Assembly (NCBI RefSeq): GCF_947502415.1
Contig: NZ_CANMZV010000016.1
Coordinates: 37,687 to 61,686, forward strand
DNA length: 24,000 bases
From: an uncultured Photobacterium sp.
GTDB lineage: Bacteria > Pseudomonadota > Gammaproteobacteria > Enterobacterales > Vibrionaceae
Direction: 5' to 3'
The position numbers were made by a program, and so were the translations under genes. Each line of letters begins with the position of its first letter. Position 1 is the stretch's first letter. The notes under the pieces were generated by a model. That model did not search any database. It saw only the letters and a list, made by a program, of their open reading frames with translations, and was not told where the DNA came from. Shown piece after piece: positions 4,563 through 20,059 of the stretch.

Positions 4563-5045
4563 TTACGCCTTCAATTCGCGAACAATATCTTGCTCTATAG
4601 ATTCCGGCGCTTTATTCGGGGCAAAACGTTTAATCGGTTTACCATTACGGCCAATCAAAAACTTGGTAAAGTTCCATTTTATTTTTTGACCAAATAATCC
4701 TGGCAATGCTTTCTTCAAATACTGGAAGACTTCGTGGCTTTCTGAACCGTTAACATCAACCTTCTCAAACATCTGGAAATCAACACCGTAGTTTATCTGG
4801 CAAGCTTCAGCTATTTGCTGATTTTCACCCGGCTCCTGACCACCAAATTGATTACATGGAAATCCCAAGATAACCAACCCTTCATCTTTATATTTGGCAT
4901 AAAGCTCCTGCAGCCCTTTATATTGATGAGTAAAACCGCATTCACTAGCCGTATTCACTACCAGCACTACTTGGCCAGCGTATTCATTCATGGAAATTTC
5001 CTCACCGCGAATACTATTCGCAGAGAGTTCATAAAACGTCGTCAT
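4563..5045 (-). CDS. Glutathione peroxidase (BtuE-like, Cys-type)
   Basis: GPx signature NTASECGFT...LGFPCNQFGGQEPG...WNFTKFL. GGAGAAAGG RBS lies upstream. Confidence 0.9.
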   Translation of the reverse strand: MTTFYELSANSIRGEEISMNEYAGQVVLVVNTASECGFTHQYKGLQELYAKYKDEGLVILGFPCNQFGGQEPGENQQIAEACQINYGVDFQMFEKVDVNGSESHEVFQYLKKALPGLFGQKIKWNFTKFLIGRNGKPIKRFAPNKAPESIEQDIVRELKA

Positions 5046-5204
5046 TACCTTTCTCCATTAGCGGAAAAACATTACAAAAAAGCCACCAGCACTAACGCAT
5101 CCCCCCAATTTAGCAAATTTGATTAGAATGATTATTCTATTTATCAATCACAAACAAACAAATACGGAAACAAACGCTAAGAGTAGTCATTAAAACCATT
5201 TAAA

Positions 5205-5218
5205 TTCAACAAGTTGAA
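5205..5218. promoter_or_regulatory. Candidate operator dyad TTCAA-CAAG-TTGAA (distal site in the gpx / yhfZ-like divergent intergenic region)
   Basis: A perfect 5-bp inverted repeat with a 4-bp spacer. It has the same arms and spacing as the sites at 5400-5413 and 14379-14392. Confidence 0.4.
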
Positions 5219-5351
5219 AACAAACACCATCACTCACCCCAGCTCATTCTTTCAAATGTTTTTTTATATTAAGTTCTGAAATGTAAGGCATTCACAATAT
5301 TTGCTACCCCCATCACGCCCTAAAAGCTTAAGTAAGAGCTAGATCTCATAT

Positions 5352-5372
5352 TCTATAAACTGGTCTATAAAC
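5352..5372 (+). promoter_or_regulatory. Tandem direct repeat TCTATAAAC x2 (12-nt period) containing ACTGGTCTA; candidate GntR-type operator
   Basis: TCTATAAAC occurs at 5352-5360 and 5364-5372, about 60-80 nt upstream of the yhfZ-like start. The GTCTATA core resembles HutC/GntR half-sites. Confidence 0.3.
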
Positions 5373-5399
5373 AAGCAGTTTTTGTTGTTATTTTAAACA

Positions 5400-5413
5400 T
5401 TCAAAATATTGAA
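5400..5413. promoter_or_regulatory. Candidate operator dyad TTCAA-AATA-TTGAA immediately upstream of the yhfZ-like start codon
   Basis: A perfect inverted repeat whose 14-mer is identical to the reverse complement of 14379-14392. The surrounding 26 nt (5399-5424) match 14334-14359 at 23/26 positions. Confidence 0.5.
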
Positions 5414-5431
5414 GATTAAAATATTGTTACT

Positions 5432-6328
5432 ATGACAACTCAATACATCAGCAAAGAAGGGGCCGCAATAATTAATATTGCGCGGTATTTAATGACAACT
5501 TCAGTCAATGACCGACTGAGGACCATAGACTCTTTATCTGAAGATATTGGAGTTTCCGTCGGCTTTATTCAAAAAGCATTAAGCACGATAGAAAAACAAG
5601 GCGCTGTCGTATTATCCAAACAGGGCAGGAATGGCACTTTCATTTCTAAACTGGATTATCAGGCTCTGGTTAAGCTTGCCGGTTTTTTCCATGTTGTATG
5701 CGCTATGCCCCTCCCCTACACCAAGCATTATGAGGGCCTTGCCAGCGGACTAAAAAAACAAATTGGAGATTTGCCGCTGTATTTTGCCCACATGCGCGGC
5801 GCAGATGTGCGGGCGGAATGCCTAAAAGCCGGCACTTATGATATTGCCATTATGTCCAAACTGGCGGCGCAAACCTACTCTGACAGCTTTGTTACAGCCA
5901 TAGACCTTGGCAGAAACTCCTATTCGCATGAGCACAGACTTATTTACCGAAGTGGCGAATACGACACAATCAAAAAAGTTGGTGTCGACCAGGATTCACC
6001 AGACCAAAAAATACTCACTCAACTTGTGTTTGAGCATAAGCCAGTAGAAATCGTCGAAATCAATTACGCAGACAGCCTTACACACCTATTACATGGTGAA
6101 ATCGATGCTGTTGTCTGGCTACCTGAAGCTATCGATATGGAAAAATACGGCCTGACGGAACAACCGCTGGATCATATCAAGCAGTGTACCTTAGCCTCTG
6201 AAGCGGTAATGCTGGTCAGCGGGGAAGCGCCGCACATCAGCACGCTGCTCCGTAAGTTAATCAATATTCCTGAGTTACTCGACCACCAACAGCAAGTTGT
6301 CAGGGGCGACATTACCCCTAGCTACTAA
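5432..6328 (+). CDS. yhfZ: YhfZ-like transcriptional regulator (GntR-like wHTH N-terminus plus YhfZ-type C-terminal domain)
   Basis: The N-terminal wHTH (IDSLSEDIGVSVGFIQKALSTIEKQGAVVLSKQGRNGTFI) is followed by a ~220-aa domain. The size (298 aa), and its position at the head of a yhfY-php-yhfU-yhfT-yhfX-yhfW set, match E. coli YhfZ as I recall it. There is no obvious Shine-Dalgarno sequence. Confidence 0.7.
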   Translation: MTTQYISKEGAAIINIARYLMTTSVNDRLRTIDSLSEDIGVSVGFIQKALSTIEKQGAVVLSKQGRNGTFISKLDYQALVKLAGFFHVVCAMPLPYTKHYEGLASGLKKQIGDLPLYFAHMRGADVRAECLKAGTYDIAIMSKLAAQTYSDSFVTAIDLGRNSYSHEHRLIYRSGEYDTIKKVGVDQDSPDQKILTQLVFEHKPVEIVEINYADSLTHLLHGEIDAVVWLPEAIDMEKYGLTEQPLDHIKQCTLASEAVMLVSGEAPHISTLLRKLINIPELLDHQQQVVRGDITPSY

Positions 6329-6349: not shown

Positions 6350-6727
6350 ATGAAGGATCGCCTAACCTTGTTACTACAAGCCAATGTAATCAGCCAGGAT
6401 GCTTATCAGGCTACCTCTTTGGCCGTAGAGCTTATTTCCCGCCATCTCAATGTTGATGAGAGTAATGAACAGTACCAAATGGCCATGACGCATTTGGCAA
6501 GGGCTTATGATCGTATCAAGTCTGGTGATCCTATTGCCGAAGGCTTAGACCCGGACATTTTCGATGAAATTATATCGGACGAGGGTTTTGAACAAATCAA
6601 CGCCCTGAATCAGGAAATACTTGATTCACTTAATATCAGCAATGTTCCGGAAACAGAAAACTCATTTTTACTGAGCAACCTCTTTTCACTGCACTGTGCA
6701 AGCCAAACCAAGGAGGCTGCATGTTGA
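6350..6727 (+). CDS. yhfY: YhfY-like stand-alone PRD-domain protein
   Basis: 125 aa. It has a PRD-like helix with a conserved His (MAMTHLARAYDRIKSG). AGGAG RBS is present. Its stop overlaps the php start (ATGTTGA). Confidence 0.65.
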   Translation: MKDRLTLLLQANVISQDAYQATSLAVELISRHLNVDESNEQYQMAMTHLARAYDRIKSGDPIAEGLDPDIFDEIISDEGFEQINALNQEILDSLNISNVPETENSFLLSNLFSLHCASQTKEAAC

Positions 6728-7599
6728 TTAATAATGCAGGCTATACCTACTGCCATGAGCACCTACATATCGATTTATCACCACAAAAAGGTGATATCGA
6801 CTGTCGTCTTGATCAATATGAACTGATCAAAGATGAAATGCGCGATCTTATTGATCATGGCGTTTATAACATTATCGAAGTAACAAATTCCTTTATGGGA
6901 AGAAATCCTCAATTTATTGAAAGTTTAATATTCGAAACAGGAATAAATGTACTCCTGTCGACCGGATATTACATTGATGGCTTCTTTCCACCTGAGCTTT
7001 ATTCCAAATCAGCCCAACAGATTAGTCAGGAGATGATTAGGGAAATCATTGTCGGCATTGATGGTAGCAACCTTAAAGCCAGTGTCATCGGCGAAATCGG
7101 CAGCAGCGAAAACACCTTCACCGAAACCGAAAAAACTGTCTTTGAAGCTGCGGCAATGGCTCACTACGAAACAGGCCGTCCAATCTCTACCCACCAGTCC
7201 ATGAGCACAATGGGGCGACAGCAAATCGAGTTGTTCAAAAACTTCGGTGTTGATATGGAAAAGGTGACTATCGGCCACTGTGACCTGAAAGATAACCTTG
7301 ATGAAATTCTCTGGTTACTTGACCAGGGCTGCCACATCCAATTCGACACTATCGGTAAAAACTCTTACTACCCGGATACCAAGCGCTTAGCAATGCTCAA
7401 AGCACTGTCCGAGCGCGGTTTACTCGATCGGGTGATGTTATCAATGGATATCACCCGTCGTTCGCACCTGAAACAAAATGGCGGACTGGGCTTTTGCTAC
7501 CTGATCGAAACCTTTGTACCGATGCTCAAAGAAATTGGCATCAGTCAGGTAGAAATCAACGCCATGTTAAAGCACAACCCCTACACACTTTTCCAATAA
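6721..7599 (+). CDS. php: Phosphotriesterase homology protein (amidohydrolase superfamily, cog1735)
   Basis: N-terminal metal-binding HxH motif (GYTYCHEHLHIDLS). 292 aa. TIM-barrel amidohydrolase pattern with later His/Asp ligands (GHCD, SMDI). Confidence 0.85.
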   Translation: MLINNAGYTYCHEHLHIDLSPQKGDIDCRLDQYELIKDEMRDLIDHGVYNIIEVTNSFMGRNPQFIESLIFETGINVLLSTGYYIDGFFPPELYSKSAQQISQEMIREIIVGIDGSNLKASVIGEIGSSENTFTETEKTVFEAAAMAHYETGRPISTHQSMSTMGRQQIELFKNFGVDMEKVTIGHCDLKDNLDEILWLLDQGCHIQFDTIGKNSYYPDTKRLAMLKALSERGLLDRVMLSMDITRRSHLKQNGGLGFCYLIETFVPMLKEIGISQVEINAMLKHNPYTLFQ

Positions 7600-7626
7600 A
7601 AATAAGTTAAACAGAAGGTTCCCGTT

Positions 7627-7986
7627 ATGAAAAAGATTGGTATTGCAGGACTACAACGCGAGCAAATCAAAGAACAAATTGATATGGCATCACCCGGCCA
7701 ATTTGAATGCCACATCCTCAATGACATGGATGCTGCAATGAAAGTGAAATCTGGCGAGCTTGATTACTACATCGGTTGTTGTAACACCGGCGCAGGCGCT
7801 GCGCTGTCCATCGCTATCGCTATTATTGGCTTCACCCAGAGCTGCACTATTGCCAAACCAGCAATAAAAGCCAAACAAGATGAAGTTCAACGCTTCATTG
7901 ACGAAGGCAAAGTAGCCTTCGGCTTATCCGTTGAACATATTGAACACGCAGTCCCCATGCTCGTCACTTCACTCGCTAATAAATAA
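7627..7986 (+). CDS. yhfU: YhfU-like protein (DUF2620 family)
   Basis: 119 aa with the motif MKKIGIAGLQREQIK...DYYIGCCNTGAGAALSIAIA. It sits between php and the yhfT-like membrane gene, as in E. coli. Confidence 0.7.
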   Translation: MKKIGIAGLQREQIKEQIDMASPGQFECHILNDMDAAMKVKSGELDYYIGCCNTGAGAALSIAIAIIGFTQSCTIAKPAIKAKQDEVQRFIDEGKVAFGLSVEHIEHAVPMLVTSLANK

Positions 7987-7995
7987 GGCTATCAC

Positions 7996-9297
7996 ATGGA
8001 CATAATGCAAATCGGCTTAGTTGCCACGCTCTGTGCCATGACGGCACTTATCGCCAACATGAGCGCTTCTGTCTTCCATGACGGGATACGCCCAATACTG
8101 CCACAGCTGGTCGAAGGAAACATGACACGACGCGATGCCGGTTCTGTGGCTTTCGGCTTGTCGATCGGCTTTGTTGCCTCTGTCGGGATATCTTTCACCT
8201 TGTCGACAGGACTGCTCAACCCCTGGCTGCTATTCCTTCCTACCGATATCATCGGAGTCATGCTCGGAAGCCGATTACTTGCGGCGATTGGAGGTGGTTT
8301 ATGGGGCGTTCTTGTCGTCACCTCACTCAGTGGTGTTAATGCCGTATTAACCGGGTTACCTATAGACGCTCTGGGTGCGCTGGGCGAGCTTGGTACACCA
8401 GTCATGACCGCTTTTGCCTTGTTCCCGCTACTGGCTATTTTCTACCAATTTGGCTGGAAAGCAGGAGCTCTAGCCAGTGCCGTCGTTCTGGTATCTCGGT
8501 TACTGATCATAAAATATACGGGCATCTATCCAGAATCTATCCAGATTTTTGTTGGTATGGTAATGCTTGTCGGAACCGCCATCCATAAAGACATCCAAAA
8601 CAAAAATAACGGGATCAATCCACCCGATATGTCCGGCATGCATAGCCTGTTTGAAGAGCGCACCAAGCGAATCATGAAGAACATGCCATTTCTGGCTGCA
8701 ACAGGTGCACTCATCGCAATCGTGGCCAATGCGGGTATTTTTGCCGGCTCAGAAGTCTCTATTTATTCTCTGGCTGACGCATACAAAATCGCCGACCCAA
8801 TTGAGCAAGATGCCGCAATCAAACAAGTCGCTCTTTCTGAATTCATGCGCGGCCTTGGCTTTGTGCCACTCATCGCCACAACAGCACTGGCTACCGGGGT
8901 ATACGGTGTCGTCGGTATGACCTTTGTGTTCGTCGTCGGCTACCTGGCGCCAAACATTCCCGTTGCAGCCTTGCTCGGCGCAATCACTATCTGCATTGAA
9001 ATTGTCCTGCTTCGTAAAATTGGCCACTTCCTGGAGCAATTCCCATCGATCCGCAACGCTTCGGATAACATTCGAAACTCAATGAATACCCTGATGGAGT
9101 TTGCATTACTGATTGGCGGAGTGCTGGCTGTAATGAAAATGGGATCAACAACCGGCCTGACCATCTTCACTGTTCTGTTCTTCCTTAACGAAGTCATGGG
9201 ACGCCCGATCCTCAAAATCGCAGCACCGGCGGTTGCCGCCATCCTAACCGGTATTGCACTGAATGTGCTGTACGTATTCGGTCTGTTCGCTATCTAG
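7996..9297 (+). CDS. yhfT: YhfT-like polytopic inner-membrane protein, putative transporter
   Basis: 433 aa, highly hydrophobic with roughly 10 or more predicted TM segments. Its size and context match YhfT. Confidence 0.75.
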   Translation: MDIMQIGLVATLCAMTALIANMSASVFHDGIRPILPQLVEGNMTRRDAGSVAFGLSIGFVASVGISFTLSTGLLNPWLLFLPTDIIGVMLGSRLLAAIGGGLWGVLVVTSLSGVNAVLTGLPIDALGALGELGTPVMTAFALFPLLAIFYQFGWKAGALASAVVLVSRLLIIKYTGIYPESIQIFVGMVMLVGTAIHKDIQNKNNGINPPDMSGMHSLFEERTKRIMKNMPFLAATGALIAIVANAGIFAGSEVSIYSLADAYKIADPIEQDAAIKQVALSEFMRGLGFVPLIATTALATGVYGVVGMTFVFVVGYLAPNIPVAALLGAITICIEIVLLRKIGHFLEQFPSIRNASDNIRNSMNTLMEFALLIGGVLAVMKMGSTTGLTIFTVLFFLNEVMGRPILKIAAPAVAAILTGIALNVLYVFGLFAI

Positions 9298-9308
9298 TTA
9301 ACGGGTAA

Positions 9309-9376
9309 AAGAGCCAGTCTGACTTCCCCTTCCACAATCATGGTGACGTAATGGTTACCCTTGTGGACTGGCTCTT
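9309..9376 (+). other. Structured intercistronic inverted repeat between the yhfT-like and yhfX-like genes
   Basis: AAGAGCCAGT (9309-9318) pairs with ACTGGCTCTT (9367-9376). An inner stem pairs CCACAA (9332-9337) with TTGTGG (9361-9366). The 5' side carries an asymmetric bulge of about 13 nt. No U-tract follows. Confidence 0.5.
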
Positions 9377-9399
9377 ATCGTCATTAAAAAGGTGCTTAT

Positions 9400-10578
9400 A
9401 TGTTTCTAAATACGTTAATACAACAAAATCCGGCACTGATTGACGGAGCCATTAAGCTGCTTGAAGATGGGTCGATCCTGCCCGATACCTATGTCATCGA
9501 TGTCGACCAGTTCAAAGAAAATGCCCGTTTAATAAAAGACAAAGCCGATAGTTATGGCATTCATCTCTATGGCATGACCAAACAATTTGGCCGAAATCCA
9601 ATGTTAGCAAAAATGCTTGTCGATGAACTGGGATACGATGGTATTGTCTGCGTCGATTTCAAAGAGGCCCGGCAACTTCACAAAGCCGGAGTGAAAATTG
9701 GCCACATAGGCCACTTAGTTCAACCTCCGAGTCGCTACATTCCTTTTATCGTTTCCGAGATCAAACCAGAAGTCATCACTGTTTATTCCATTGAAAAAGC
9801 ACGAGAGGTTTCAGCCGCTGCTCAACAGGCCAACCGAACCCAAGGCATACTGCTGAAGTTCTTCCGTTCCAGTGATCAGCTGTACCCTAACCAGGAAGCA
9901 GGCTTTCCCATCGAATCACTCGAAGGGGTCATTTCCCAAATTTCTGCCCTACCGAACCTTCATATTTCGGGACTGACCCATTTTCCCTGCTTCCTCTATA
10001 ACCCTAAAACACATAGTACTGAGCCAACACCGAATATCAAGACACTATACGCGGCTAAACAACAAGCTGACGAACTGGGTTACCGTTTCACTCAACTCAA
10101 TTCCCCTTCAGCAACCTGCTGCGAAACCATACCGAATATTAAGCACTTCTCCGGAACGCACGGTGAACCGGGTCATGCCCTGACCGGAACCATTCCTGCC
10201 AATCTGGATGGCAGTCAGCCGGAAAAGATCGCCATGCTGTATATCAGCGAAGTCTCGCACCATTTCGGGAGAAAAAGTTATTGCTACGGTGGCGGCTATT
10301 ACAGCCGAAGCCAATTAACCAGTGCACTAATCCGAGAACAAATACAGGCCGAAACCAAAGATACGATCGTCAATATCAGCAACGGGGATGAATCCAATAT
10401 CGACTATTACCTACAGTTCGATTCGCCCTGCGCTATTGGGACTCCTGTCGTCATGGCCTTTCGCACACAAGTTTTTGTTACACGAAGTGATGTTGCTCTT
10501 GTCGAGGGACTATCAAGCAATGCTCCGAAGCTGCTTGGTTTATTCGATGCACAAGGTAATGAGGTGATACATGGCTAA
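9400..10578 (+). CDS. yhfX: YhfX-like PLP-dependent enzyme (alanine-racemase N-terminal fold family)
   Basis: 392 aa. The N-terminal TIM-like region and C-terminal beta domain are arranged as in alanine racemase or ornithine decarboxylase fold type III. AAGGTG RBS is present. The gene overlaps the next gene by 8 nt. Confidence 0.65.
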   Translation: MFLNTLIQQNPALIDGAIKLLEDGSILPDTYVIDVDQFKENARLIKDKADSYGIHLYGMTKQFGRNPMLAKMLVDELGYDGIVCVDFKEARQLHKAGVKIGHIGHLVQPPSRYIPFIVSEIKPEVITVYSIEKAREVSAAAQQANRTQGILLKFFRSSDQLYPNQEAGFPIESLEGVISQISALPNLHISGLTHFPCFLYNPKTHSTEPTPNIKTLYAAKQQADELGYRFTQLNSPSATCCETIPNIKHFSGTHGEPGHALTGTIPANLDGSQPEKIAMLYISEVSHHFGRKSYCYGGGYYSRSQLTSALIREQIQAETKDTIVNISNGDESNIDYYLQFDSPCAIGTPVVMAFRTQVFVTRSDVALVEGLSSNAPKLLGLFDAQGNEVIHG

Positions 10579-11830
10579 ATTTATTGTCGTGGTATTAGAT
10601 GGTTTTGGCATTGGTGAAATGCCGGATGTTGCAACAGTCCGCCCACAAGATCTGGGCGCCAATACGGCAGGAAAACTACTGAATCATTTTCCGCTCAAAA
10701 GGCTCCCGACACTGGAAAAACTAGGGCTAATCAATATTGTCGGCGCAACTAACTCGGTGATGAACCTCGCTCCAGACGCAAACTGGGGAAAATCAAAGCT
10801 CGCTCACTACGGATGTGACACTTTCATGGGTCACCAGGAAATCATGGGCACACACCCCAAGCCGCCCATGATCAAACCGTTTCAGCAATCCATTGATGAT
10901 ATAGAAGAAGCGCTCAATCTAGCCGGCTATCAAGTTGAGCGAATCAGCCGGAAACAACTGCAATTACTGATGGTCAATGGCAGTGTTGTAATCGGTGATA
11001 ACCTTGAAGCCGATCTGGGTCAAGTCTATAACCTGACAGCGAATTTCGGCCAGATCAGTTTCGATGACGTCAAAAAAATCGGACAAGTAGTTCGTTCTGC
11101 CAATGCGGTAAGTCGCAATATCGCTTTTGGTGGATTCGTCCCGACAATACAGAACATCCTGAATGCCATAGAAACCAAAACCGATAAAAGTGGCAAGGAA
11201 TTGTATATCGGTGTCAATGCGCCCGATTCCGGTACTTACGACAATGGATTCCAGGTTGTCCACCTTGGCTATGGTGTCAATGCCAAAACCCAAGTGCCCT
11301 ATCAGCTGAATCAAGCAGGTATTCATACTTACCTCTACGGTAAAGTTGCCGATATTGTCCAGAACGACACCGGCACATCTTTTACCTCTGTCGTTGATAC
11401 CGATCGAGTTTTCGAACTGCTAATCAATGATCTGCACCAATACGATAAAGGTTTTTTCTGCGCCAATGTGCAGGAAACTGATCTCTCCGGCCACCAGCAG
11501 GATCCCAAGCGCTACTGGACAATTTTAGAAAAAGCAGATCGGGGATTAGCTTCGGTAATCGCTGAGATGGAGCAAGGGGATATGCTGGTTGTCATGGCCG
11601 ACCATGGTAATGACCCATTCATCGGCCATACCAAACATACCCGAGAACAAGTGCCGTTGATGGTCTATAGCCCCGGAGTAAAAGGCGTTCAGCTCGATAC
11701 CTGCGAAACGATGGCCGATATTGGTGCCAGCGTCGCAGCTTACTTTGGCGCCCCTTTCCCAGAATTCGGTTGTCCGGTGATAGCAACGAAAATCAAGAGG
11801 GCAACCCCCACACTCTCAGAAGCGTTCTAA
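10571..11830 (+). CDS. yhfW: YhfW-like phosphopentomutase-family metalloenzyme
   Basis: The N-terminus (KFIVVVLDGFGIGEMPD) and the ADHGNDP motif are typical of the DeoB/phosphopentomutase (alkaline phosphatase superfamily) group. 419 aa. Confidence 0.8.
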   Translation: MAKFIVVVLDGFGIGEMPDVATVRPQDLGANTAGKLLNHFPLKRLPTLEKLGLINIVGATNSVMNLAPDANWGKSKLAHYGCDTFMGHQEIMGTHPKPPMIKPFQQSIDDIEEALNLAGYQVERISRKQLQLLMVNGSVVIGDNLEADLGQVYNLTANFGQISFDDVKKIGQVVRSANAVSRNIAFGGFVPTIQNILNAIETKTDKSGKELYIGVNAPDSGTYDNGFQVVHLGYGVNAKTQVPYQLNQAGIHTYLYGKVADIVQNDTGTSFTSVVDTDRVFELLINDLHQYDKGFFCANVQETDLSGHQQDPKRYWTILEKADRGLASVIAEMEQGDMLVVMADHGNDPFIGHTKHTREQVPLMVYSPGVKGVQLDTCETMADIGASVAAYFGAPFPEFGCPVIATKIKRATPTLSEAF

Positions 11831-11936
11831 CAGCGTGACAAATTTAACGGGCGATCTGATTCATTTGCCTTTCGAATAACACGTAACACCAATAACAAAA
11901 AAACATTACCTACTGTATCCTACCAAGGAGATAAAA

Positions 11937-14120
11937 ATGACATTCAAGAAGACCATAACCGTGGCAATTGCGCTGGCTTTAGCTCCCGCAGCCTTTGCCT
12001 CAAACGGCGGTATGCAAGACTTTCTCGATAGTTTGAGAGACTTTGAATCAGGCATAAACCCGAGCCTGAGCACTTTCTACTACGACAACCTAGACAACCC
12101 CGTATTCACCTATGCCAAAGTTACAAAACCAGGTCGCTTAGTCCGGGATTGTGCTACCGGTATGATGATATCGGAGCCAACCACCATCAATCAGTTTTTC
12201 CAGAAACTCGGCATCGACGACATCTACAACCCTGCCACTCCACACAACCGCGACATGTTCCGTTCAATGCAATACAACTCAATGAATGCATGGGGCTTTG
12301 TCGGCTATCAGCTAGGTGAAGCCGTACTTATTGATGCCGGCTACTACAGCCCCAATACTGTGACCATCGACGGTAAAAAATATGACAGCTTCTACATGTT
12401 TGTTCCTGATTCCACATGGATAGGATGTAAAACCGAGGCGCTTTCAGAAATTCCAGGATCGGGCGGCAATCAGGTTTACGTCACTGATACAAACCGCTGG
12501 GAAGGTAAGTTTGTCGGTAAAAACGGCATAAATAACTTCAACGACTTGTTACTACCTGAAAAACAGGAACTAGTGATCCGGGATGCAATGCATTTCAACT
12601 ATAAGATCATTTCTAAATTGCTGTCAGATGCCAATATGACCTGGGAGCAAGCCCTTTCGAAAAGCTGGCCAGATAAAGATGACAACGGCCAACCAATTCA
12701 GGTACAGGCAACGATGTCAGGTATCCTGGCTGCAGCACACTTACGTGGAGCCTGGGGTACTGGCGCACTTCTGACCAAAGATAAAATTACCTGCGATGAA
12801 ATAGGAACTTGCATCACCAAGTATGTACATAAATTTGGTGACTACGATACCCTATTTGATGTACCGGGAGACAGCACTACTCACGGTTCCATCTATGATG
12901 AAGTACTTACTGCCGGTTGGGGCAATGACACCGTCATTACCGGCGGCGGCAACAACCAAATACTGCTAAACGAGCAAAACGGTTCGACAACAACCATTAC
13001 CGATTTTGTTCTTAACAAAGATCTAATCATTCTACGTGGATGGAAAGCGGCAGATCCGCTAGCATCCCTTACAGTGACTGATGCTAACGGCAACAGTGAA
13101 TTGCAGTTTGCCGGACAAACAGTGGTACTTAAAGGCGTTGCTGCTAAAGATGTACAGGCAAACCCATCAGCTGTTATCGAAAAGTCAGATGTTTACACAC
13201 TGGCTTGGAACACCGGCAAGCAAGTCGTTGAAGGCTTCAACCCTGCAGTTGATAAAATTGAAGGTAGTGCAGGCATCGGCTTCAAACACCTTAAAGCCTA
13301 TGAAACAGAAAGATCTGTCATCATTGGTCCACAGGCAGAAGATGGCGGAATTTATGCCTCTTATGAGCTAGTAGGACTAACATTGGCAGATCTTACACCA
13401 GAGATGTTTGTTAACATCACCGGTGGGTACGACCGCCTTGGTTACATTGTTCCACTTAACCACATTAACTGGGGTTGGAACATGATGCTGACTGTCAAAA
13501 CTTTTGACGTCAAAAAAACTGTCCTCACAGTACCAAGCAATCAACCAGTTCCATTCTCAGCCCTCAAACTGACCCAAGAAGGCGCCAATGTCGTTATTAC
13601 GCTGCTAGAACCCTATGCCAAAGGTGATAAGAAGAAGATTGTTCTCCATAACACTGATGTCAAACTACTTAGTGCAGCTAATTTCTCGGGCTTCTCAGGT
13701 AACTACAGTGAAGCCACAACCGACATTTCTGTAATGTTCGATATTAGCGTATCTGTTGATGGTTCTGGTGGTACGATTTCTCCAGTTCCTGGCGTTGATG
13801 GGGTTTTGCAGGCTAAAGGTGGCTCAGACTTCGTCATCAACTTTATCCCTGATGCTGGATATAAAGTGAAATCAATTGTTGTTGACGGTATTACTTATCC
13901 GGCAGCAAACTCCTACACCTTCTCTGCGGTAAAAGGCAACCACCAACTGAGTGTAAGCTTCGAACAAGGATCATCCTGCCCGGCCCTTTGGGATAGTAAT
14001 GCCGTATATGTCGGTGGAGATCGCGTAACATACGAGGGGAGAATATACCAAGCAAGCTGGTGGACTAAAGGGAATAAACCTGACTTAGGAGGCCCTTGGA
14101 AACCTGTTGGCAATTGTTAA
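11937..14120 (+). CDS. Secreted multidomain protein: unassigned N-terminal ~300 aa, RTX-like Gly/Asp segment, InlB-B-repeat-like domain, C-terminal CBM5/12 chitin-binding module
   Basis: Sec signal peptide (MTFKKTITVAIALALAPAAFA|SNG). GWGNDTVITGGGNNQILL resembles Ca-binding RTX nonapeptides. GGTISPVPG...GYKVKSIVVDGITY...SVSFE fits the divergent InlB B-repeat pattern. The C-terminal WDSNAVYVGGDRVTYEGRIYQASWWTKGNKPDLGGPWKPVG is a classic CBM5/12 pattern. Strong AAGGAG RBS. Confidence 0.8.
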   Translation: MTFKKTITVAIALALAPAAFASNGGMQDFLDSLRDFESGINPSLSTFYYDNLDNPVFTYAKVTKPGRLVRDCATGMMISEPTTINQFFQKLGIDDIYNPATPHNRDMFRSMQYNSMNAWGFVGYQLGEAVLIDAGYYSPNTVTIDGKKYDSFYMFVPDSTWIGCKTEALSEIPGSGGNQVYVTDTNRWEGKFVGKNGINNFNDLLLPEKQELVIRDAMHFNYKIISKLLSDANMTWEQALSKSWPDKDDNGQPIQVQATMSGILAAAHLRGAWGTGALLTKDKITCDEIGTCITKYVHKFGDYDTLFDVPGDSTTHGSIYDEVLTAGWGNDTVITGGGNNQILLNEQNGSTTTITDFVLNKDLIILRGWKAADPLASLTVTDANGNSELQFAGQTVVLKGVAAKDVQANPSAVIEKSDVYTLAWNTGKQVVEGFNPAVDKIEGSAGIGFKHLKAYETERSVIIGPQAEDGGIYASYELVGLTLADLTPEMFVNITGGYDRLGYIVPLNHINWGWNMMLTVKTFDVKKTVLTVPSNQPVPFSALKLTQEGANVVITLLEPYAKGDKKKIVLHNTDVKLLSAANFSGFSGNYSEATTDISVMFDISVSVDGSGGTISPVPGVDGVLQAKGGSDFVINFIPDAGYKVKSIVVDGITYPAANSYTFSAVKGNHQLSVSFEQGSSCPALWDSNAVYVGGDRVTYEGRIYQASWWTKGNKPDLGGPWKPVGNC

Positions 14121-14150
14121 TTTATCAACCTCTATAACCAAATAGAATAT

Positions 14151-14182
14151 ATGGTCGCGATATTTTGTCGCGACCATTTTTT
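14151..14182 (+). terminator. Rho-independent terminator
   Basis: A perfect 10-bp stem, ATGGTCGCGA (14151-14160) with TCGCGACCAT (14168-14177), followed by TTTTTT. Confidence 0.85.
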
Positions 14183-14334
14183 GTTAGTCCAGACTAAAGG
14201 AAAAAAATAAAAACAAACCTCATAAACAACATAAAAGTTCATTCTAGATTAAGGTGCAAATATTACACCACCTAACAAATGTAATACTTACAAACATATC
14301 AAAACAAGTGGAATTTAATTCACAAAAACATATA

Positions 14335-14348
14335 TTCAAAATATTGAG
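14335..14348. promoter_or_regulatory. Candidate operator dyad TTCAA-AATA-TTGAG (one arm mismatch) upstream of the PTS operon
   Basis: 13/14 identical to 5400-5413. The extended segment 14334-14359 matches 5399-5424 at 23/26 positions. Confidence 0.45.
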
Positions 14349-14378
14349 GATAAGAATATGTGAGCGCAAACATTTATT

Positions 14379-14392
14379 TTCAATATTTTGAA
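14379..14392. promoter_or_regulatory. Candidate operator dyad TTCAA-TATT-TTGAA upstream of the PTS operon (inverted copy)
   Basis: The exact reverse complement of the 14-mer at 5400-5413. It is 44 bp centre-to-centre from the 14335-14348 site and about 54 nt upstream of the IIB start. Confidence 0.5.
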
Positions 14393-14445
14393 AATTAATA
14401 TTCATATGTACCCTAACCTATTAAAGAAATACAAGGATGACCACT

Positions 14446-14757
14446 ATGAATATATTCCTATGCTGCTCCGCAGGCATGTCTACCAGTATGCTGGTAAAAA
14501 AAATGCAAGATGCAGCCAAGAGCCAAGGTATCGAATGTTCTATTAACGCTTATTCTATTTCTGAGTTTGAACCAGCCCTTGCTGAAAATGATGTCTGCCT
14601 GGTTGCCCCTCAGGTTAAATTCCAATATGAACAGTTTAAATCCAGAGCAGAAGAAAAAGGCAAAGCATGCGGACTTATTGAAATGATGGATTACGGCATG
14701 ATGAAAGGTGACGTCATTCTTAAGCAAGCTGTAGAACTCTACAACTCAATAAAGTAA
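14446..14757 (+). CDS. PTS lactose/cellobiose-family EIIB component
   Basis: MNIFLCCSAGMSTSMLVKKMQ contains the phospho-Cys loop typical of ChbB/CelA-type IIB. The ORF track starts at 14437. I prefer the ATG at 14446 because AAGGA lies 8 nt upstream of it. Confidence 0.9.
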   Translation: MNIFLCCSAGMSTSMLVKKMQDAAKSQGIECSINAYSISEFEPALAENDVCLVAPQVKFQYEQFKSRAEEKGKACGLIEMMDYGMMKGDVILKQAVELYNSIK

Positions 14758-14767
14758 GGAATACATA

Positions 14768-16093
14768 ATGAGTATCTTTAATAAGGTCATGCAGTTTGTG
14801 GAAGCTGTTGTCGCCCCCATGGCGGCAAAGGTTTCCTGCCAGCGCCATATTAATGCAATCAAAGATGGTTTCGTCGCCACAATGCCATTTTTGATTGTCG
14901 GCTCCCTGTTACTTGTTTTAGCCTTCCCACCGGGAGAAGGAAACTTCTTCCTCGACGGCTGGCACTCTTTAGTAGACAAGATCGGCCAGCAAAACATCCT
15001 CGCATCTTTCCAGATCAGCATGGGTATCTTTGCTGTCTATGCCGCTTTCAGTATCGGCTATAACCTCGCAGAATCATATGGTCTTCGCTCCCTGAACTCC
15101 GGCCTGTTATCCTTGTTCACCTTCCTGCTGGCAGTTGCTCCGGTGCAGTTCATTGATGATATCGGTGGCATTATGCCAATCGCTAACATGGGCGGTACCG
15201 GTGCGTTTACCGCCATTCTTACAGGCTTATTAGTGCCTGAACTACAGCGGTTCTTACGAGACAAAAACATTCGCCTGAAAATGCCAGATGCCGTACCACC
15301 AAAAATTTCAGCGTCATTTGACCTGCTCATTCCGGTTGTGATTGTTTGTATTGTCGTTGTTTCGATTAATGCCATGCTATCAAACTATGATCTGAACATC
15401 CCAACCGCCATTATGGAGATCTTCAAACCACTAGTTTCAGCCTCTGACTCGTTCTTTGCCTGTCTGCTGGCAGTTATCATGATTCAGCTACTGTGGTTCG
15501 GTGGTATTCACGGTTCATCCGTTGTTGTTACCGGGATATTGTATCCGGTTTTAATTATCAACCTTGGACTAAACCAGGAAGCATTGGCAGCAGGTCAGGA
15601 ACTGCCTAAAATATTCGTAAACCCAATTCTGGATTTCTTTATTTTCGTTGGTGGTGCTGGTGGCACATGGGGTTTTGTTGTATTGATGATGCGTTCTAAA
15701 TCAACTCACCTTCGTACTATCGGTAAAATGTCGATTATTCCAAGTACATTTAACATTAATGAACCAGTTATTTTCGGCACCCCAATTGTAATGAACCCTA
15801 ACTATTTCATTCCTTGGATGCTATCGCCAATGATTAATACCTGTATCGTTTGGGCAGCATTTAAAACGGAAATAATTTCAAAAATTATTGCCTTACCTCC
15901 CTGGACAATGCCTGCGCCTATCGGTGCTGTAATTGCAACAAATTCAAGTACAGCCGCATTTGTTGTTGTCCTCTGTGTTCTTGTCAGTGTCATTATTTAT
16001 TATCCGTTCTTCAAGATTCACGAAAAGCAACTTCTTGAAGAAGAAAAAGCGACTGAAGAACAGGAAATGGAATTAAAACCATCTAAGGCCTAA
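14768..16093 (+). CDS. PTS lactose/cellobiose-family EIIC permease
   Basis: 441 aa polytopic protein with ChbC/CelB-like motifs (INAIKDGF, LLWFGGIHG, INEPVIFGTPIVMNP, PWTMPAPIG). Confidence 0.9.
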   Translation: MSIFNKVMQFVEAVVAPMAAKVSCQRHINAIKDGFVATMPFLIVGSLLLVLAFPPGEGNFFLDGWHSLVDKIGQQNILASFQISMGIFAVYAAFSIGYNLAESYGLRSLNSGLLSLFTFLLAVAPVQFIDDIGGIMPIANMGGTGAFTAILTGLLVPELQRFLRDKNIRLKMPDAVPPKISASFDLLIPVVIVCIVVVSINAMLSNYDLNIPTAIMEIFKPLVSASDSFFACLLAVIMIQLLWFGGIHGSSVVVTGILYPVLIINLGLNQEALAAGQELPKIFVNPILDFFIFVGGAGGTWGFVVLMMRSKSTHLRTIGKMSIIPSTFNINEPVIFGTPIVMNPNYFIPWMLSPMINTCIVWAAFKTEIISKIIALPPWTMPAPIGAVIATNSSTAAFVVVLCVLVSVIIYYPFFKIHEKQLLEEEKATEEQEMELKPSKA

Positions 16094-16095
16094 TC

Positions 16096-16467
16096 ATGAC
16101 ATTTGAAATTAACAAGCAAGAAGATATCACCGAAGAATTTTTGATGACGCTGCTCTGTAAAGTTGGAGAAGCACGAGCATCATTAATGAATGCCATTTCT
16201 TTAGCTAAAAAAGGTGACTTTGCCCAGTCTGAAGAAATGATTGCCATTGCAGATGATGCTCTGGCCGATGTCCACCGGACACAGACAGGACTTATTGGCT
16301 TTGATGAAGGAGAAGGAAAAGTCACTATGACTTTAATCCTGACCCATATTCAGGACCACATAATGACGACCATGCTATGTCGTGATTTGGCAACAGAAAT
16401 CATTGCGATCCACTCGATTATCGCTAACAAAGAGGAATTGTCAGAAAATGAAAAAGCGTATATTTGA
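16096..16467 (+). CDS. PTS lactose/cellobiose-family EIIA component
   Basis: 123 aa helical protein with the ChbA-like pattern (GEARASLMNAI..AKKGDF..AE..I..A...L..VHRTQT...LTHIQDHIMTT), including the conserved His region. Confidence 0.85.
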   Translation: MTFEINKQEDITEEFLMTLLCKVGEARASLMNAISLAKKGDFAQSEEMIAIADDALADVHRTQTGLIGFDEGEGKVTMTLILTHIQDHIMTTMLCRDLATEIIAIHSIIANKEELSENEKAYI

Positions 16468-17338
16468 TTTAACACGCCACGATATCGCCAATATGAGTCG
16501 TACCGATATTGTCGATTGCATCCGTCGCTCTGAAGGGCGTTCCATGATGGTTGAAAATGTCACCTCTATGGCTCCGCCGGTTGACCTCGTCTCCGGAGCC
16601 GAAATTGCCGCCGCCTTTGGCGCTGACATGATCACCCTCAACTGCCTCGATCTAATGGAACCTCGCGCGGAAGTTAACGGTGCAGCAGATCATGGAAGCG
16701 CTGATCATTTCACCGTACAAGAACTCAAACAGCTTTCCGGACGCATGATCGGCTGTAACCTGGAGCCCGTGCCTCAAGGCTTCACCGATATCAATATCGG
16801 CCGTTCATTAACAAAAGAGACCGTTGAAAAGGCTGTTGAACTCGGCATGAACTACATCATGCTGACAGGTAACCCGGGAATGATGGTCTCGCAAGAAACA
16901 ATTCTTAATGCGATAGCACTCACCCGCGAAGTATCGAAAGACATCCTGATCATCGCCGGCAAAATGCACGGAGGCGGCGTAGGTAACGACTATAACCTGG
17001 AATTCATTCCTCAATTTGCAGAAGCTGGCGCTGACATCATGATGTTCCCGGCTCCTTACACGACTCCAGGAATGAACCCGGCGCTAGCCTCAACGGTCAT
17101 GGATGCAGTCCATGAAGCCGGTATGCTGGGTATGCTTGCCATTGGAACCTCACAAGAGGGCGCTTCAGAAAGTTATATCGAAAAGGTCACCATTGAATCT
17201 AAAGGCGCGGGAGCTGATATCGTTCACATTGGCGATGGCGGCTACGGTGGCATTGCTGTTCCGGAAAATATCATGCGAATGGGCATCACACTACGTGGCA
17301 GACGCCACCAGTTCAAACGCATGGCTAACCATCGCTAA
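16448..17338 (+). CDS. Uncharacterised 296-aa protein, probable alpha/beta (TIM-barrel-like) enzyme, fourth gene of the PTS operon
   Basis: Start chosen at the ATG at 16448 (MKKRIFDL...), which overlaps the IIA stop by 20 nt. The ORF-track extension from 16382 would run through the IIA coding sequence. Alternating beta/alpha pattern with Gly-rich loops (LTGNPG, IIAGKMHGGG, GADIVHIGDGGYGG). I recognise no family with confidence. Confidence 0.7.
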   Translation: MKKRIFDLTRHDIANMSRTDIVDCIRRSEGRSMMVENVTSMAPPVDLVSGAEIAAAFGADMITLNCLDLMEPRAEVNGAADHGSADHFTVQELKQLSGRMIGCNLEPVPQGFTDINIGRSLTKETVEKAVELGMNYIMLTGNPGMMVSQETILNAIALTREVSKDILIIAGKMHGGGVGNDYNLEFIPQFAEAGADIMMFPAPYTTPGMNPALASTVMDAVHEAGMLGMLAIGTSQEGASESYIEKVTIESKGAGADIVHIGDGGYGGIAVPENIMRMGITLRGRRHQFKRMANHR

Positions 17339-17396
17339 TCATCGGCGTGAATAATGGTTTATGTCCCTTTTTGGGGCCATAACCCTATAACTCAAC

Positions 17397-17431
17397 GAGC
17401 CCCATCCACTGCCTTGGGGCTCATTATTTTT
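17397..17431 (+). terminator. Rho-independent terminator of the PTS operon
   Basis: Stem GAGCCCCA (17397-17404) pairs with TGGGGCTC (17415-17422), followed by ATTATTTTT. Confidence 0.75.
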
Positions 17432-17552
17432 ACGAAGAAAAACTCTGCTTTCAAATTATCGTCTTGCCGAAGAACCAATAAACTCTTACTGAACAAGCAT
17501 CTTGAAGTTACTTGGGTATAATAAGCTAAAGCTTTCAAGATGATATTTAATA

Positions 17553-18131
17553 ATGACTAACTTACTCAAAGAACTGGAAAAGATGGGACTTAACTCTCTG
17601 AGCTTCACTGAGCAGGAAACCTCTTTGCTGGAACAATTTATCGATCATAGTTCAGCGTTCTTTGACAATGTCTGCCAACACAAGCCGGATAAACCACCCC
17701 ATGATATGGCTCTGGGGCTACTTACCAAAGCTCACCAAGAAGCATTCGATAATTATCAGGCCACCCAGCCAAAAATTTCCGAACTTCAAACTATGTTCAC
17801 CGATAACGTCGGCGCCGAACATGCCAGCAAGTTTTCAACACTCAATCAGGCCGAGCTTAGTGTTATTTCATCATTGTGGTTTATGGCACAAGGCTTCACT
17901 GGTATTGATTTCAGCTATGCCAATGATAAAGCAGCAGAAACAGCCGAGCTGCTCACAGAGAATCAAACGTCAACAGAAGATACAAAAAAGAAGTCGATAA
18001 AGAATAGTGAAGATTATCGTTCATTGTTTATGAAAGCTTACTACACAGGCATTGATGCGGCACATCAGAATCAACCACACCTATCATTTTTGTTAACAAT
18101 CAAAAACTATCTAAAACACCTGTTTAAATAG
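17553..18131 (+). CDS. Hypothetical protein (192 aa), no recognisable domain
   Basis: A long ORF with plausible composition and no signal peptide. The RBS is weak or absent. A competing 112-aa ORF in another frame looks like low-complexity noise. Confidence 0.5.
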   Translation: MTNLLKELEKMGLNSLSFTEQETSLLEQFIDHSSAFFDNVCQHKPDKPPHDMALGLLTKAHQEAFDNYQATQPKISELQTMFTDNVGAEHASKFSTLNQAELSVISSLWFMAQGFTGIDFSYANDKAAETAELLTENQTSTEDTKKKSIKNSEDYRSLFMKAYYTGIDAAHQNQPHLSFLLTIKNYLKHLFK

Positions 18132-18396
18132 AACTTCCCCCTTTAATCTGCAGTACTTTAAGCCATATTTCCATTAATTTTGGATGTTGAGGCACTGCAT
18201 TTTTAAAGGCATATAAAATCCATAGTGATTAAAACATGGCATTCAGTGAAAAAACTTTCATCAGCTAAGTTTTTAACACCAAACCGATTTAACATAAATA
18301 CATACAAACTTTACAAAAACGATCATTGAGCATTTTTCACTCAAGCGATAAACTGCTCATGCTTTAAACAAATATGTTGTTCCTTATACTTTATTC

Positions 18397-18429
18397 TACG
18401 CCTATCACTATTTGATAGGCGTATTTTTT
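18397..18429 (+). terminator. Rho-independent terminator, plus-strand oriented, ~265 nt downstream of the nearest plus-strand CDS
   Basis: An 11-bp stem, TACGCCTATCA (18397-18407) with TGATAGGCGTA (18413-18423), followed by TTTTTT. There is no T-tract in the minus orientation. Confidence 0.7.
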
Positions 18430-18459
18430 AAGGGCGTAAGAAAGAGTCCCCTTACCAAG

Positions 18460-19230
18460 TTACTGTGTCAGCTCCTCATCAACCCAATATTTCGAACCGG
18501 AAATGTTGGCATCAAGCAGTAGACCTTTCTCACCAATCTGATAAATCGCCATACCACCATTGTACTTAGCTGCCAGCTCTGCACTGTCTGTTCCGGCGAC
18601 AACCCCCGCTTCTGACGTAGCTTCCCAGCCATCTGTCACGAAACTGTCGAAGGTTTTCTTATCTTCGAAAAAGATCAACTGCTGGTAAAACTTGCCGCCA
18701 ATTCCGAGCGCTAAGCCAGCACCAAACATTTTCATGTATGTTCGCTTATCGGTCTTCCGATTGACCGCTACCCCCGCCCCTTGGTTGGTGTGAAGCATTA
18801 AAGAAAACTTACGGGAATCAAACACGGCATAACCATAAGCACTATCAAATAACAACTTGGCTGACGGCTGTTCGTTAAACAAACGTACCAATGCCGTATC
18901 AGACATAGTATCTAACGCCAAACGAGCCTCTTCCGGGGTTTCAGGCTCCAGCATTTCATCAAGCTTTGCTTCACCGGCTTCAAGCCATTCTTCACCTTTT
19001 TCTATCGATGCATCGGTCCACTCACCAGCGGTATTAAATGCATCCTCTCCCCACTCTGAAACAGAATCCCAGGTCTCTTTGGAAAAGTCAGTAACATCCT
19101 GCCAGGCTTTTTTCGAACCTTCACTGACCTGTTGACCAAGATCCGACGCCGCTTCCTTAAATTCCTCCCAACTGGCATGAGCCGGAGTCACAGCAAGGCA
19201 TAATACAGCAACAATTACCTTCAACTTCAC
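18460..19230 (-). CDS. Secreted protein with a Trp/acidic repeat N-terminal region and a SYLF/DUF500 (Ysc84-like) C-terminal domain
   Basis: GTG start with GGAGGG 6 nt upstream. Signal peptide MKLKVIVAVLCLAVTPAHA|SW. The C-terminal ~140 aa (AYGYAVFDS..GAGVAVNR...GAGLALGIGGKFYQQLIFFED...W.ATSEAGVVAG) follows the SYLF lipid-binding domain pattern. This assignment is from pattern memory only. Confidence 0.6.
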   Translation of the reverse strand: MKLKVIVAVLCLAVTPAHASWEEFKEAASDLGQQVSEGSKKAWQDVTDFSKETWDSVSEWGEDAFNTAGEWTDASIEKGEEWLEAGEAKLDEMLEPETPEEARLALDTMSDTALVRLFNEQPSAKLLFDSAYGYAVFDSRKFSLMLHTNQGAGVAVNRKTDKRTYMKMFGAGLALGIGGKFYQQLIFFEDKKTFDSFVTDGWEATSEAGVVAGTDSAELAAKYNGGMAIYQIGEKGLLLDANISGSKYWVDEELTQ

Positions 19231-19246
19231 GGGTTACCCTCCATAC

Positions 19247-19276
19247 AAAACTGGCAACTAATTAGTTGCCAGTTTT
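19247..19276 (-). terminator. Perfect 30-nt palindrome acting as the intrinsic terminator downstream of mog
   Basis: AAAACTGGCAACTAATTAGTTGCCAGTTTT. The GC-containing stem is flanked by an A-run and a T-run, so it could function in both directions. Confidence 0.75.
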
Positions 19277-19295
19277 CAATCCAATATTTCGTCTT

Positions 19296-19829
19296 CTATT
19301 TCTTCTTCGGACGGAAAGGCTTCATAACCTCTTCATTACACTCAAGGTATGGACCTTCCATCAGGTCGATACAATAAGGTATAGCAGGAAAAACCGCATC
19401 CAGACATTCGCGAATAGATTTCGGCTTACCCGGCAGGTTAACAATCAGGCTGTCACCGCGCAGGCCTGCTGTCTGGCGAGACAAAATCGCCGTCGGGACA
19501 AATTTCAGTGACTCTGCACGCATCAACTCGCCAAAACCTGGCATCATGCGATCGCAAACCGCTTCGGTAGCCTCAGGCGTCACATCACGTTTAGCTGGGC
19601 CTGTACCGCCGGTTGTTACGATCAGGCTACAATCTTGCTCATCCGCCATTTTGATCAGTGTCGCTTCGATAATATCCTGCTCATCAGGGATCACTTCATA
19701 AACAGGCTCCCATTCTGATGTCAGGTAATCATTCAGTGTTTCAATAATCGCCTTACCAGAAATATCATCGTACACGCCTGCACTTGCGCGGTCACTGACC
19801 GTTACAATACCGATTTTTGCTTTTGTCAT
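19296..19829 (-). CDS. mog: Molybdopterin adenylyltransferase (MogA)
   Basis: KIGIVTVSDRASAGVYDDISG...TTGGTGPAKRDVTPEAT...MPGFGELMR...PTAILSRQ...NLPGKPKSIRE aligns closely with E. coli MogA. Confidence 0.9.
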   Translation of the reverse strand: MTKAKIGIVTVSDRASAGVYDDISGKAIIETLNDYLTSEWEPVYEVIPDEQDIIEATLIKMADEQDCSLIVTTGGTGPAKRDVTPEATEAVCDRMMPGFGELMRAESLKFVPTAILSRQTAGLRGDSLIVNLPGKPKSIRECLDAVFPAIPYCIDLMEGPYLECNEEVMKPFRPKKK

Positions 19830-20035: not shown

Positions 20036-20059
20036 ATTGAAAAGGCATTAAACAGGTAA

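Follow-up and report, generated by a model that had tools for sequence, protein, structure and literature searches.

A 20-bp palindrome specific to the yhf gene cluster is a probable operator of the GntR-like regulator YhfZ

The uncharacterised sugar-utilisation gene cluster yhfZ-yhfY-yhfX-yhfW-php-yhfU-yhfT-yhfS is conserved in Escherichia coli K-12 and in many other gamma-proteobacteria. A 24,000-nucleotide stretch from an uncultured Photobacterium sp. (contig NZ_CANMZV010000016.1, positions 37,687 to 61,686; henceforth the window, with positions counted from its first letter) carries a version of this cluster, followed by an operon for a phosphotransferase system (PTS) of the lactose/cellobiose family. 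An earlier note, made by reading the window alone, had pointed to a short inverted repeat, TTCAANNNNTTGAA, in the control regions of both units and had proposed that it is a regulatory site common to the two. What is this site, what binds it, and to what effect? We find that it belongs to a 20-bp palindrome that is specific to the yhf gene cluster and that is probably the operator of YhfZ, which would repress both its own operon and the PTS operon.

When the window was read again, the repeats were found at the coordinates and with the sequences originally given. Perfect matches to TTCAANNNNTTGAA number exactly three (at 5205, 5400, and 14379) against a mean of 0.06 in dinucleotide shuffles, none of the 100 shuffles reaching three, which upholds the view that their recurrence is not accidental. 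The copy at 14379-14392 is indeed the exact reverse complement of that at 5400-5413, and the likeness of the two control regions does extend over 26 nt, with 5399-5424 and 14334-14359 identical at 23 positions. With one mismatch allowed, nine matches are seen as opposed to 2.1 expected; those at 14335, 4714, and 6908 had been reported, whereas those at 2338, 3168, and 7931 had been overlooked.

The limits first drawn around the dyad, 5-bp arms with a 4-bp spacer, had to be revised in light of a comparison with 80 loci around yhfZ homologs, each from a different species and taken with 10-kb flanks, that represent Photobacterium, Vibrio, Enterovibrio, Thaumasiovibrio, Aeromonas, and many Enterobacterales. 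A logo of 66 distinct orthologous sites reads AT(A/C)TTCA, six A/T-rich bases, TGAA(G/T/A)AT. The conserved unit is hence a 20-bp palindrome, ATMTTCA-(A/T-rich N6)-TGAAKAT, with 7-bp arms, a 6-bp spacer, and A/T-rich flanks. The fifth arm pair of the original dyad is not conserved (a T precedes TGAA in 22 of the 66 sites), the outer AT...AT pairs are, and the TTCA and TGAA half-sites lie one helical turn apart. Given this logo, the shared 26-nt segment consists of the 20-bp operator and an A/T-rich flank. A position weight matrix (PWM) trained on the 66 yhfZ-proximal sites, with a maximum of 29.7 bits, recovers only four sites in the window at 10 bits or more: one at the yhfZ promoter (O_Z), one inside php (O_php), and a distal and a proximal one at the PTS promoter (O_P1 and O_P2; Table 1). 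All four are still found at a threshold of 15 bits, which no match in 30 shuffles reaches, and the two intergenic regions hold one and two matches against 0.002 expected. At 10 bits or more, the same scan finds no operator in the window before yhfX or before the gene for a chitin-binding protein that lies downstream of yhfW.

The dyad at 5205 did not hold up as a genuine copy. It scores 4.5 bits, compared to 22-29 bits for the others, and lies in an intergenic segment without a counterpart in three related Photobacterium loci aligned with it (L001, L003, and L005). Nor can the bare TTCA-N6-TGAA core rescue it, since the rarity of that core is insufficient: the window has three matches where 0.9 are expected, and nine of 100 shuffles reach that number. 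We rejected it as a further operator and regard it as probably a chance match.

Across genomes, TTCA-N6-TGAA with at most one mismatch is found 10-70 nt upstream of yhfZ, usually at a near-fixed distance, in 73 of 81 sequences, spanning Photobacterium, Vibrio, Enterovibrio, Aeromonas, and many Enterobacterales. Scanned with the PWM at a cut-off of 15 bits, the loci, 1.63 Mb in total, gave 186 matches, nearly all of which fall into five classes. The first comprises one or two sites upstream of yhfZ, with a tandem pair 24 bp apart in loci of Buttiauxella, Cedecea, Enterobacter, Klebsiella, and Citrobacter. The second is seen in enterics where yhfX comes after yhfY, with the site preceding yhfX by 50-60 nt (77 nt in L078), and the third in Vibrionaceae where php adjoins yhfY without a gap, with the site about 185 nt inside php. 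The fourth class lies upstream of linked PTS operons (L005, L020, L028, L031, L036, L040, and L041). The fifth is found before a second yhfT-like gene (L014) and, in Vibrio comitans (L019), before two units of a rearranged cluster: a sulfatase with its radical-SAM/SPASM maturase (12850-16682 of that locus) and a yhfY-yhfX-yhfW unit with a NagB-like gene after it (17065-20885). This content suggests that the regulon of V. comitans may handle sulfated amino sugars. About 110 of the matches were untouched by the training of the matrix (39 in php, 32 before yhfX, 33 at the distal yhfZ site, and 10 at PTS operons). In E. coli K-12 MG1655, the tandem sites ATCTTCAAATTCCTGAAGAT and ATATTCAATTTACTGAAAAT stand 24 bp apart before yhfZ, the second ending 5 nt before the ATG, and ATATTCAAAAAAATGAATAT, at 24.8 bits, precedes yhfX.

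Such sites are specific to yhf clusters. Inside the clusters (with 300 bp added on either side), there are 182 matches in 606 kb, as opposed to four in 1,021 kb outside them, i.e. 3.0 versus 0.039 matches per 10 kb, an approximately 77-fold difference within the 10-kb flanks; three of the four outside matches flank genes inserted into the L019 cluster. The site also accompanies yhfZ when the gene is duplicated or the cluster rearranged (e.g., L019, L014, and L020). Four Photobacterium genomes (P. frigidiphilum, P. sagamiensis, P. lipolyticum, and the metagenome-assembled genome HN18) have two yhfZ paralogs about 13 kb apart (L020/L022, L028/L024, L036/L025, and L031/L021). The second paralog there has no yhfY beside it and is oriented divergently to the PTS operon; operator copies are found in the intergenic region that the two share. 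In P. alginatilyticum (L001), the interval from yhfW to the PTS IIC gene is free of operator copies and contains tandem (TAGAAAC)n and (AGAGAAT)n repeats (16380-16530). In E. coli K-12 (L081, 14400-14630, minus strand), a repeat of the repetitive extragenic palindrome/bacterial interspersed mosaic element (REP/BIME) kind, gccggatgcggcgtgaacgccttatccggcctac, separates trpS from the yhfZ promoter; one paper notes a BIME upstream of E. coli yhfZ, in agreement with this repeat, and nothing on regulation.

The earlier note had described the perfect dyads as confined to intergenic DNA and had set aside the copy in php as intragenic. That confinement is not strict, and the php copy turned out to be a conserved site, present in 39 Vibrionaceae loci. 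When php from 42 Vibrionaceae was aligned by codon and scanned in 286 windows of seven codons, third-position entropy was lowest in the one at 6904, with 0.305 bits compared to an average of 1.41 (z = -4.0). The php genes of 36 enterics are without the site, and their variation at these codons is unremarkable (1.14 compared to 1.26; rank 86 of 286; z = -0.6). This combination of constraint in Vibrionaceae and ordinary variation in enterics indicates that O_php is maintained at the level of DNA, and only where it is present, making it a clean example of a regulatory site that constrains synonymous codons. It might function as a roadblock, as a looping partner, or as the control site of an internal promoter.

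The conservation in php also bears on the simplest alternative, that the copies are chance repeats in A/T-rich intergenic DNA. The probable chance origin of the 5205 copy is of this kind, and in a terabase-scale metagenome scan for ATMTTCAAWWWAWTGAAGAT, only two of 120 among the matches listed adjoin yhfZ, although those matches are mostly chance hits on A/T-rich unrelated contigs and are uninformative on specificity within gamma-proteobacteria. For the four main copies, the shuffle tests, the positional conservation over a wide phylogenetic range, and the synonymous-site constraint refute this explanation and leave it practically no chance of being right. The proposal of a regulatory DNA site common to the yhf and PTS control regions is supported by its conservation, its recurrence at PTS promoters in independent lineages, and its density in the clusters.

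Which protein is likely to bind it? According to Pfam and NCBIfam, no protein of the cluster other than YhfZ has a DNA-binding domain, and the site sits on the promoter of yhfZ itself in nearly every lineage; for these two reasons YhfZ is the likely binder, in keeping with the earlier note, which had pointed to a regulator encoded at the locus. The YhfZ of the window combines an N-terminal winged helix of the HTH_41 family (60.8 bits) with the YhfZ_C domain (255.4 bits), matches the full-length model NF041241 (YhfZ_full) at 351.7 bits against a cut-off of 260, and is 44% identical to E. coli YhfZ, the motif being recognisably alike in both organisms. Structurally, YhfZ is solved for its C-terminal domain alone (2OZZ). 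Dyad symmetry and half-sites one helical turn apart would suit a winged-helix dimer. In the literature that we searched on YhfZ, the other yhf genes, and the motif, YhfZ is named only as a 'putative transcription factor', and no operator, regulon, or targets of it are described.

Binding sites of global proteins had to be considered as well. The dyad of the window contains TCAA-N4-TTG, which resembles the consensus of IHF, WATCAANNNNTTR, and either strand of the window sites agrees with WTCAANNNNTTR, a pattern with 15 matches where seven are expected. Yet the 'TT' of that consensus is lost among the orthologous sites, only 22 of 66 having a T before TGAA, their conservation is dyad-symmetric, and the 1.02 Mb of flanking DNA from the 80 genomes contains just one match that is truly outside the yhf clusters. 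A site for IHF or another global architectural protein was rejected on these grounds and is barely credible. The ARG box of ArgR, TGAAT-N4-ATTCA, is composed of the same pentamers as the dyad of the window, but with its arms in the opposite order and with different spacing.

The positions of the operators provide the main indication of what a bound protein would do. At the PTS promoter, O_P1 and O_P2 bracket a TGTGA pentamer, a putative CRP site, which is kept in every PTS promoter compared, with a poor right half. CRP-dependent promoters have TGTGA-N6-TCACA, centred at -41.5 or -61.5 relative to the transcription start. The layout of first operator, 6-8 nt, TGTGA, second operator, and TAATAT or TATTAT recurs in the window, in V. 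ezurae (L040), and in four other Photobacterium; the two operators enclose TGTGA in L040, L020, L028, L031, and L036, and a single site is present in L005 and L041. TAATAT or TATTAT directly follows O_P2 in the window, L040, L036, and L005, and the two operators are 44 bp apart in the window and 45 bp in L040 and L036, approximately four turns of the helix. Taking TAATAT as the -10 element would centre TGTGA-N6 near -41.5 and O_P1 near -66, with O_P2 filling the spacer. As RNA, these near-identical inverted copies could pair (14328-14400; -19.8 kcal/mol, z = -5.7), and the resulting long hairpin is probably incidental to the palindromic nature of both operators.

At yhfZ, two promoter readings both stand, and the attempt to fix the transcription start from sequence alone was dropped. 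As first noted, 18 nt lie between the 5400-5413 dyad and the ATG, with no visible Shine-Dalgarno sequence, and TAAAAT is present at 5417-5422. In the first reading (A), TAAACA (5394-5399) and this TAAAAT would form a promoter with a 17-bp spacer filled by the operator, a start near 5429, and a leader of about 3 nt, a geometry like that of the PTS promoter. The nearly leaderless transcript proposed earlier is compatible with this reading, but not with what is seen in most other species, where TGAAGAT ends 5-9 nt before the ATG, making a -10 element downstream of the site impossible. In the second reading (B), the start would fall at the left edge of the operator, giving a leader of 22-31 nt; the operator would cover +1 to +20, and the well-conserved GAAGAU, 6-8 nt before the AUG, may bind the ribosome weakly. 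The enterics offer a fitting promoter, TTGCCA and GAAGAT (the right arm of the distal operator) separated by 17 bp, whose transcript would begin at the proximal operator's edge. Either reading would place the operator where a bound protein blocks transcription, which fits the earlier suggestion that binding there could block initiation.

Several observations weigh against YhfZ as a repressor acting through this site. Classical GntR operators have GT...AC cores (TGGT-N3-ACCA in the FadR-like and GT-N-TA-N-AC in the HutC-like subfamily), from which the TTCA half-site differs: the 66 sites consist of TTCA and TGAA around a 6-bp A/T spacer and show no such core. All 80 comparison loci were picked for carrying yhfZ, and the source genome was viewed through the 24-kb window, such that further regulon members or sites may exist elsewhere in it. 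In Yersinia (L067-L076), the operator adjoining the yhfZ start is missing; a weaker copy, of 15.9-18 bits, is found some 100 nt before the gene in L067, L068, L069, and L075, the copy before yhfX is kept in three loci, and yhfW is absent throughout. Finally, the ambiguity between the two promoter readings makes repression provisional, and O_P1 near -66 could equally serve activation.

The atypical half-site and the comparison of local DNA only would suit a cluster-specific operator whose binder is encoded elsewhere in the genome. Such an arrangement appears unlikely, considering that the site is always found with yhfZ and on its promoter, the usual pattern of autoregulated local regulators, that no other DNA-binding domain is encoded in the cluster, and that the site tracks the yhfZ paralogs and the rearranged clusters. 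Alternatively, YhfZ might be an activator or dual regulator, for example one that co-activates with CRP from O_P1, which is upstream of the CRP-like site. A CRP-like 16-mer (at least eight of ten core matches, with poor right halves) is likewise found at a fixed distance upstream of the yhfZ operators, centred 80.5-83.5 nt before the ATG in about 37 loci including K-12. Against activation, the best-conserved copies lie over the -10 and spacer or the +1 region, where bound proteins normally repress, and most GntR-type local regulators are repressors; we hold this alternative to be rather unlikely.

A further possibility is that the palindrome acts as RNA, as a hairpin in the yhfZ leader that steers translation or antitermination, perhaps with YhfY. 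Palindromes fold, the site adjoins the start codon, a PRD protein is encoded nearby, and the orthologous sites of L013 and E. coli fold to -7.5 and -11.2 kcal/mol (z = -2.9 and -4.1). The hairpin of the window, however, is weak (-3 kcal/mol, z = -0.5), the copies are found in either orientation, and those of the PTS promoter precede the likely -10. Among 105 distinct sites there is no covariation: the inner three pairs (TCA/TGA) are essentially invariant, outer deviations are uncompensated, and pair 3-18 is Watson-Crick in only 35% of the sites. Rfam 15 has no match in the whole window. The hallmarks of BglG/LicT-type antitermination are also missing, in that YhfY has no CAT RNA-binding domain according to Pfam and no terminator resembling a ribonucleic antiterminator (RAT) partner is present in 4900-5500. 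Since the arms do not covary and Rfam gives no match, we consider the element to be a DNA site; the RNA alternative was rejected and is very improbable.

Pieced together from sequence comparison, the preferred scheme is one in which a YhfZ dimer, with a GntR-like winged helix and YhfZ_C as effector domain, would bind the palindrome at O_Z to autoregulate yhfZ-yhfY and the downstream genes and at O_P1 and O_P2 to control the PTS operon, in both cases occluding RNA polymerase and repressing the unit. Relief might come from an effector, probably derived from an amino sugar, acting on the C-terminal domain of YhfZ, and/or through YhfY, a stand-alone PRD protein that could sense the phosphorylation state of the PTS. 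yhfY nearly always adjoins yhfZ, and an alignment of 70 YhfY sequences has five invariant residues, His48, Arg55, Asp67, Glu103, and Asn110, of which His48 is the single invariant histidine. Speculatively, the adjacency, this histidine, and the co-regulated PTS operon suggest a phosphorylation input. We tentatively raise a more elaborate version, of which we are doubtful, in which YhfZ and YhfY are an undescribed two-protein PTS-responsive switch: HPr or the co-regulated PTS would phosphorylate the single histidine of YhfY, which would modulate the GntR-like repressor; the operators would double as core promoter or translation-start elements; and the php operator would gate the structural genes separately from the regulator genes.

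Table 1. Sites and genes of the yhf-PTS locus (positions in the window; scores in bits are those of the PWM trained on orthologous operators)
Feature	Positions	Strand	Basis and remarks
gpx	4563-5045	-	Pfam/NCBIfam
Dyad TTCAACAAGTTGAA	5205-5218	.	4.5 bits; probably chance, outside the system
yhfZ promoter, reading B: -10-like TATTTT	5389-5394	+	Cross-species spacing
yhfZ promoter, reading A: -35-like and -10-like hexamers	5394-5422	+	Consensus scan
O_Z ACATTCAAAATATTGAAGAT	5397-5416	.	yhfZ promoter; 28.8 bits; contains the dyad 5400-5413
yhfZ-like regulator gene, proposed binder	5432-6328	+	HTH_41 winged helix and YhfZ_C
yhfY-like gene, stand-alone PRD protein (125 aa)	6350-6727	+	Pfam PRD
php, yhfU (DUF2620), yhfT, yhfX, yhfW, CBM5/12 gene	6721-14120	+	Pfam, NCBIfam; order conserved across loci; yhfW ends at 11830
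O_php ACTTTCAATAAATTGAGGAT (minus-strand reading)	6905-6924	.	Inside php, about 185 nt into the gene; 20.6 bits
727-aa protein with C-terminal chitin-binding CBM5/12 module	11937-14120	+	Pfam/NCBIfam
Terminator-like hairpin	14151-14177	+	12-bp stem, then T-run; separates the yhf/CBM unit from the PTS operon
O_P1 ATATTCAAAATATTGAGGAT, distal PTS operator	14332-14351	.	24.1 bits
CRP-like half-site TGTGA	14359-14363	+	Between O_P1 and O_P2
O_P2 ATTTTCAATATTTTGAAAAT, proximal PTS operator	14376-14395	.	22.0 bits; abuts the -10-like hexamer
-10-like hexamer TAATAT	14396-14401	+	Read from sequence; directly 3' of O_P2
PTS operon: lactose/cellobiose-family IIB, IIC, IIA, then DUF7916 gene	14437-17338	+	Pfam; IIC is TIGR00410 (lacE subfamily), 366 bits

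The genes placed under these operators offer some hints as to function. The 727-aa CBM5/12 protein has no recognisable catalytic domain, a weak local match to a polyurethane-esterase model covering its residues 304-409, and its gene is linked to yhf clusters in several Vibrionaceae. The AlphaFold model of YhfU (7627-7986; pLDDT 96.5) is matched by Foldseek to the RpiB/LacAB sugar-phosphate isomerases (TM ~0.7), and its invariant GACNTGAG loop, which contains Cys52, is reminiscent of the active-site loop of RpiB. We read DUF2620 as a probable isomerase-like enzyme and not as a PTS enzyme IIB (EIIB); that YhfU might be a hidden EIIB linking the PRD protein to transport in enterics was rejected, the model resembling those isomerases. 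In the PTS operon, the IIB start is more likely the ATG at 14446 than 14437, with a ribosome-binding site, AAGGA, at 14430-14434. As listed, with a GTG at 16382, the open reading frame of the DUF7916 gene shares 86 nt with that of IIA, and the Pfam match sets in only at residue 28, so that the gene probably starts further downstream.

Comparison with known systems brings out both shared themes and differences. Like the GntR-family local repressors (FadR, GntR, NagR/YvoA, and PdhR), YhfZ has an N-terminal winged helix-turn-helix and would have a dyad-symmetric, cluster-specific operator that lies on its own promoter as well as on catabolic and transport promoters. It differs from them in its effector domain, which is YhfZ_C and not of the FCD, UTRA, MocR, or YtrA type, and its DNA-binding domain is that of Pfam HTH_41. 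The chbBCARFG promoter of E. coli, which serves the chitobiose PTS, is controlled by NagC, ChbR, and CRP, with two repressor sites flanking the CRP site. The PTS promoter of the window likewise serves a lactose/cellobiose-family system and has two operator sites around a CRP-like site; however, NagC is a ROK-family protein with a longer and different operator and acts alongside an AraC-type activator, and no AraC-type gene is found in the yhf cluster. PRD regulators include the BglG/LicT antiterminators and the activators MtlR, LicR, and LevR, and their PRD domains usually have two histidines. The yhf locus similarly encodes a PRD with a conserved histidine beside a regulator and near a PTS operon, but YhfY is a separate protein, unfused to any DNA- or RNA-binding domain, with one invariant histidine.

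By analogy with these systems, the palindrome looks like the operator of a previously uncharacterised local regulon, with YhfZ resembling, in functional terms, a typical autoregulated GntR-type local repressor. The content of the regulon points to amino-sugar or chitin-derived compounds, as judged from the chitobiose-type PTS, DUF7916, and the chitin-binding protein in Photobacterium and from the sulfatase and the NagB-like protein in V. comitans. More generally, the pairing of YhfZ with YhfY may link a GntR-like regulator to PTS signalling, and the conserved operator provides a direct experimental handle on this widespread cluster, one that is present in E. coli K-12 as two copies before yhfZ and one before yhfX.

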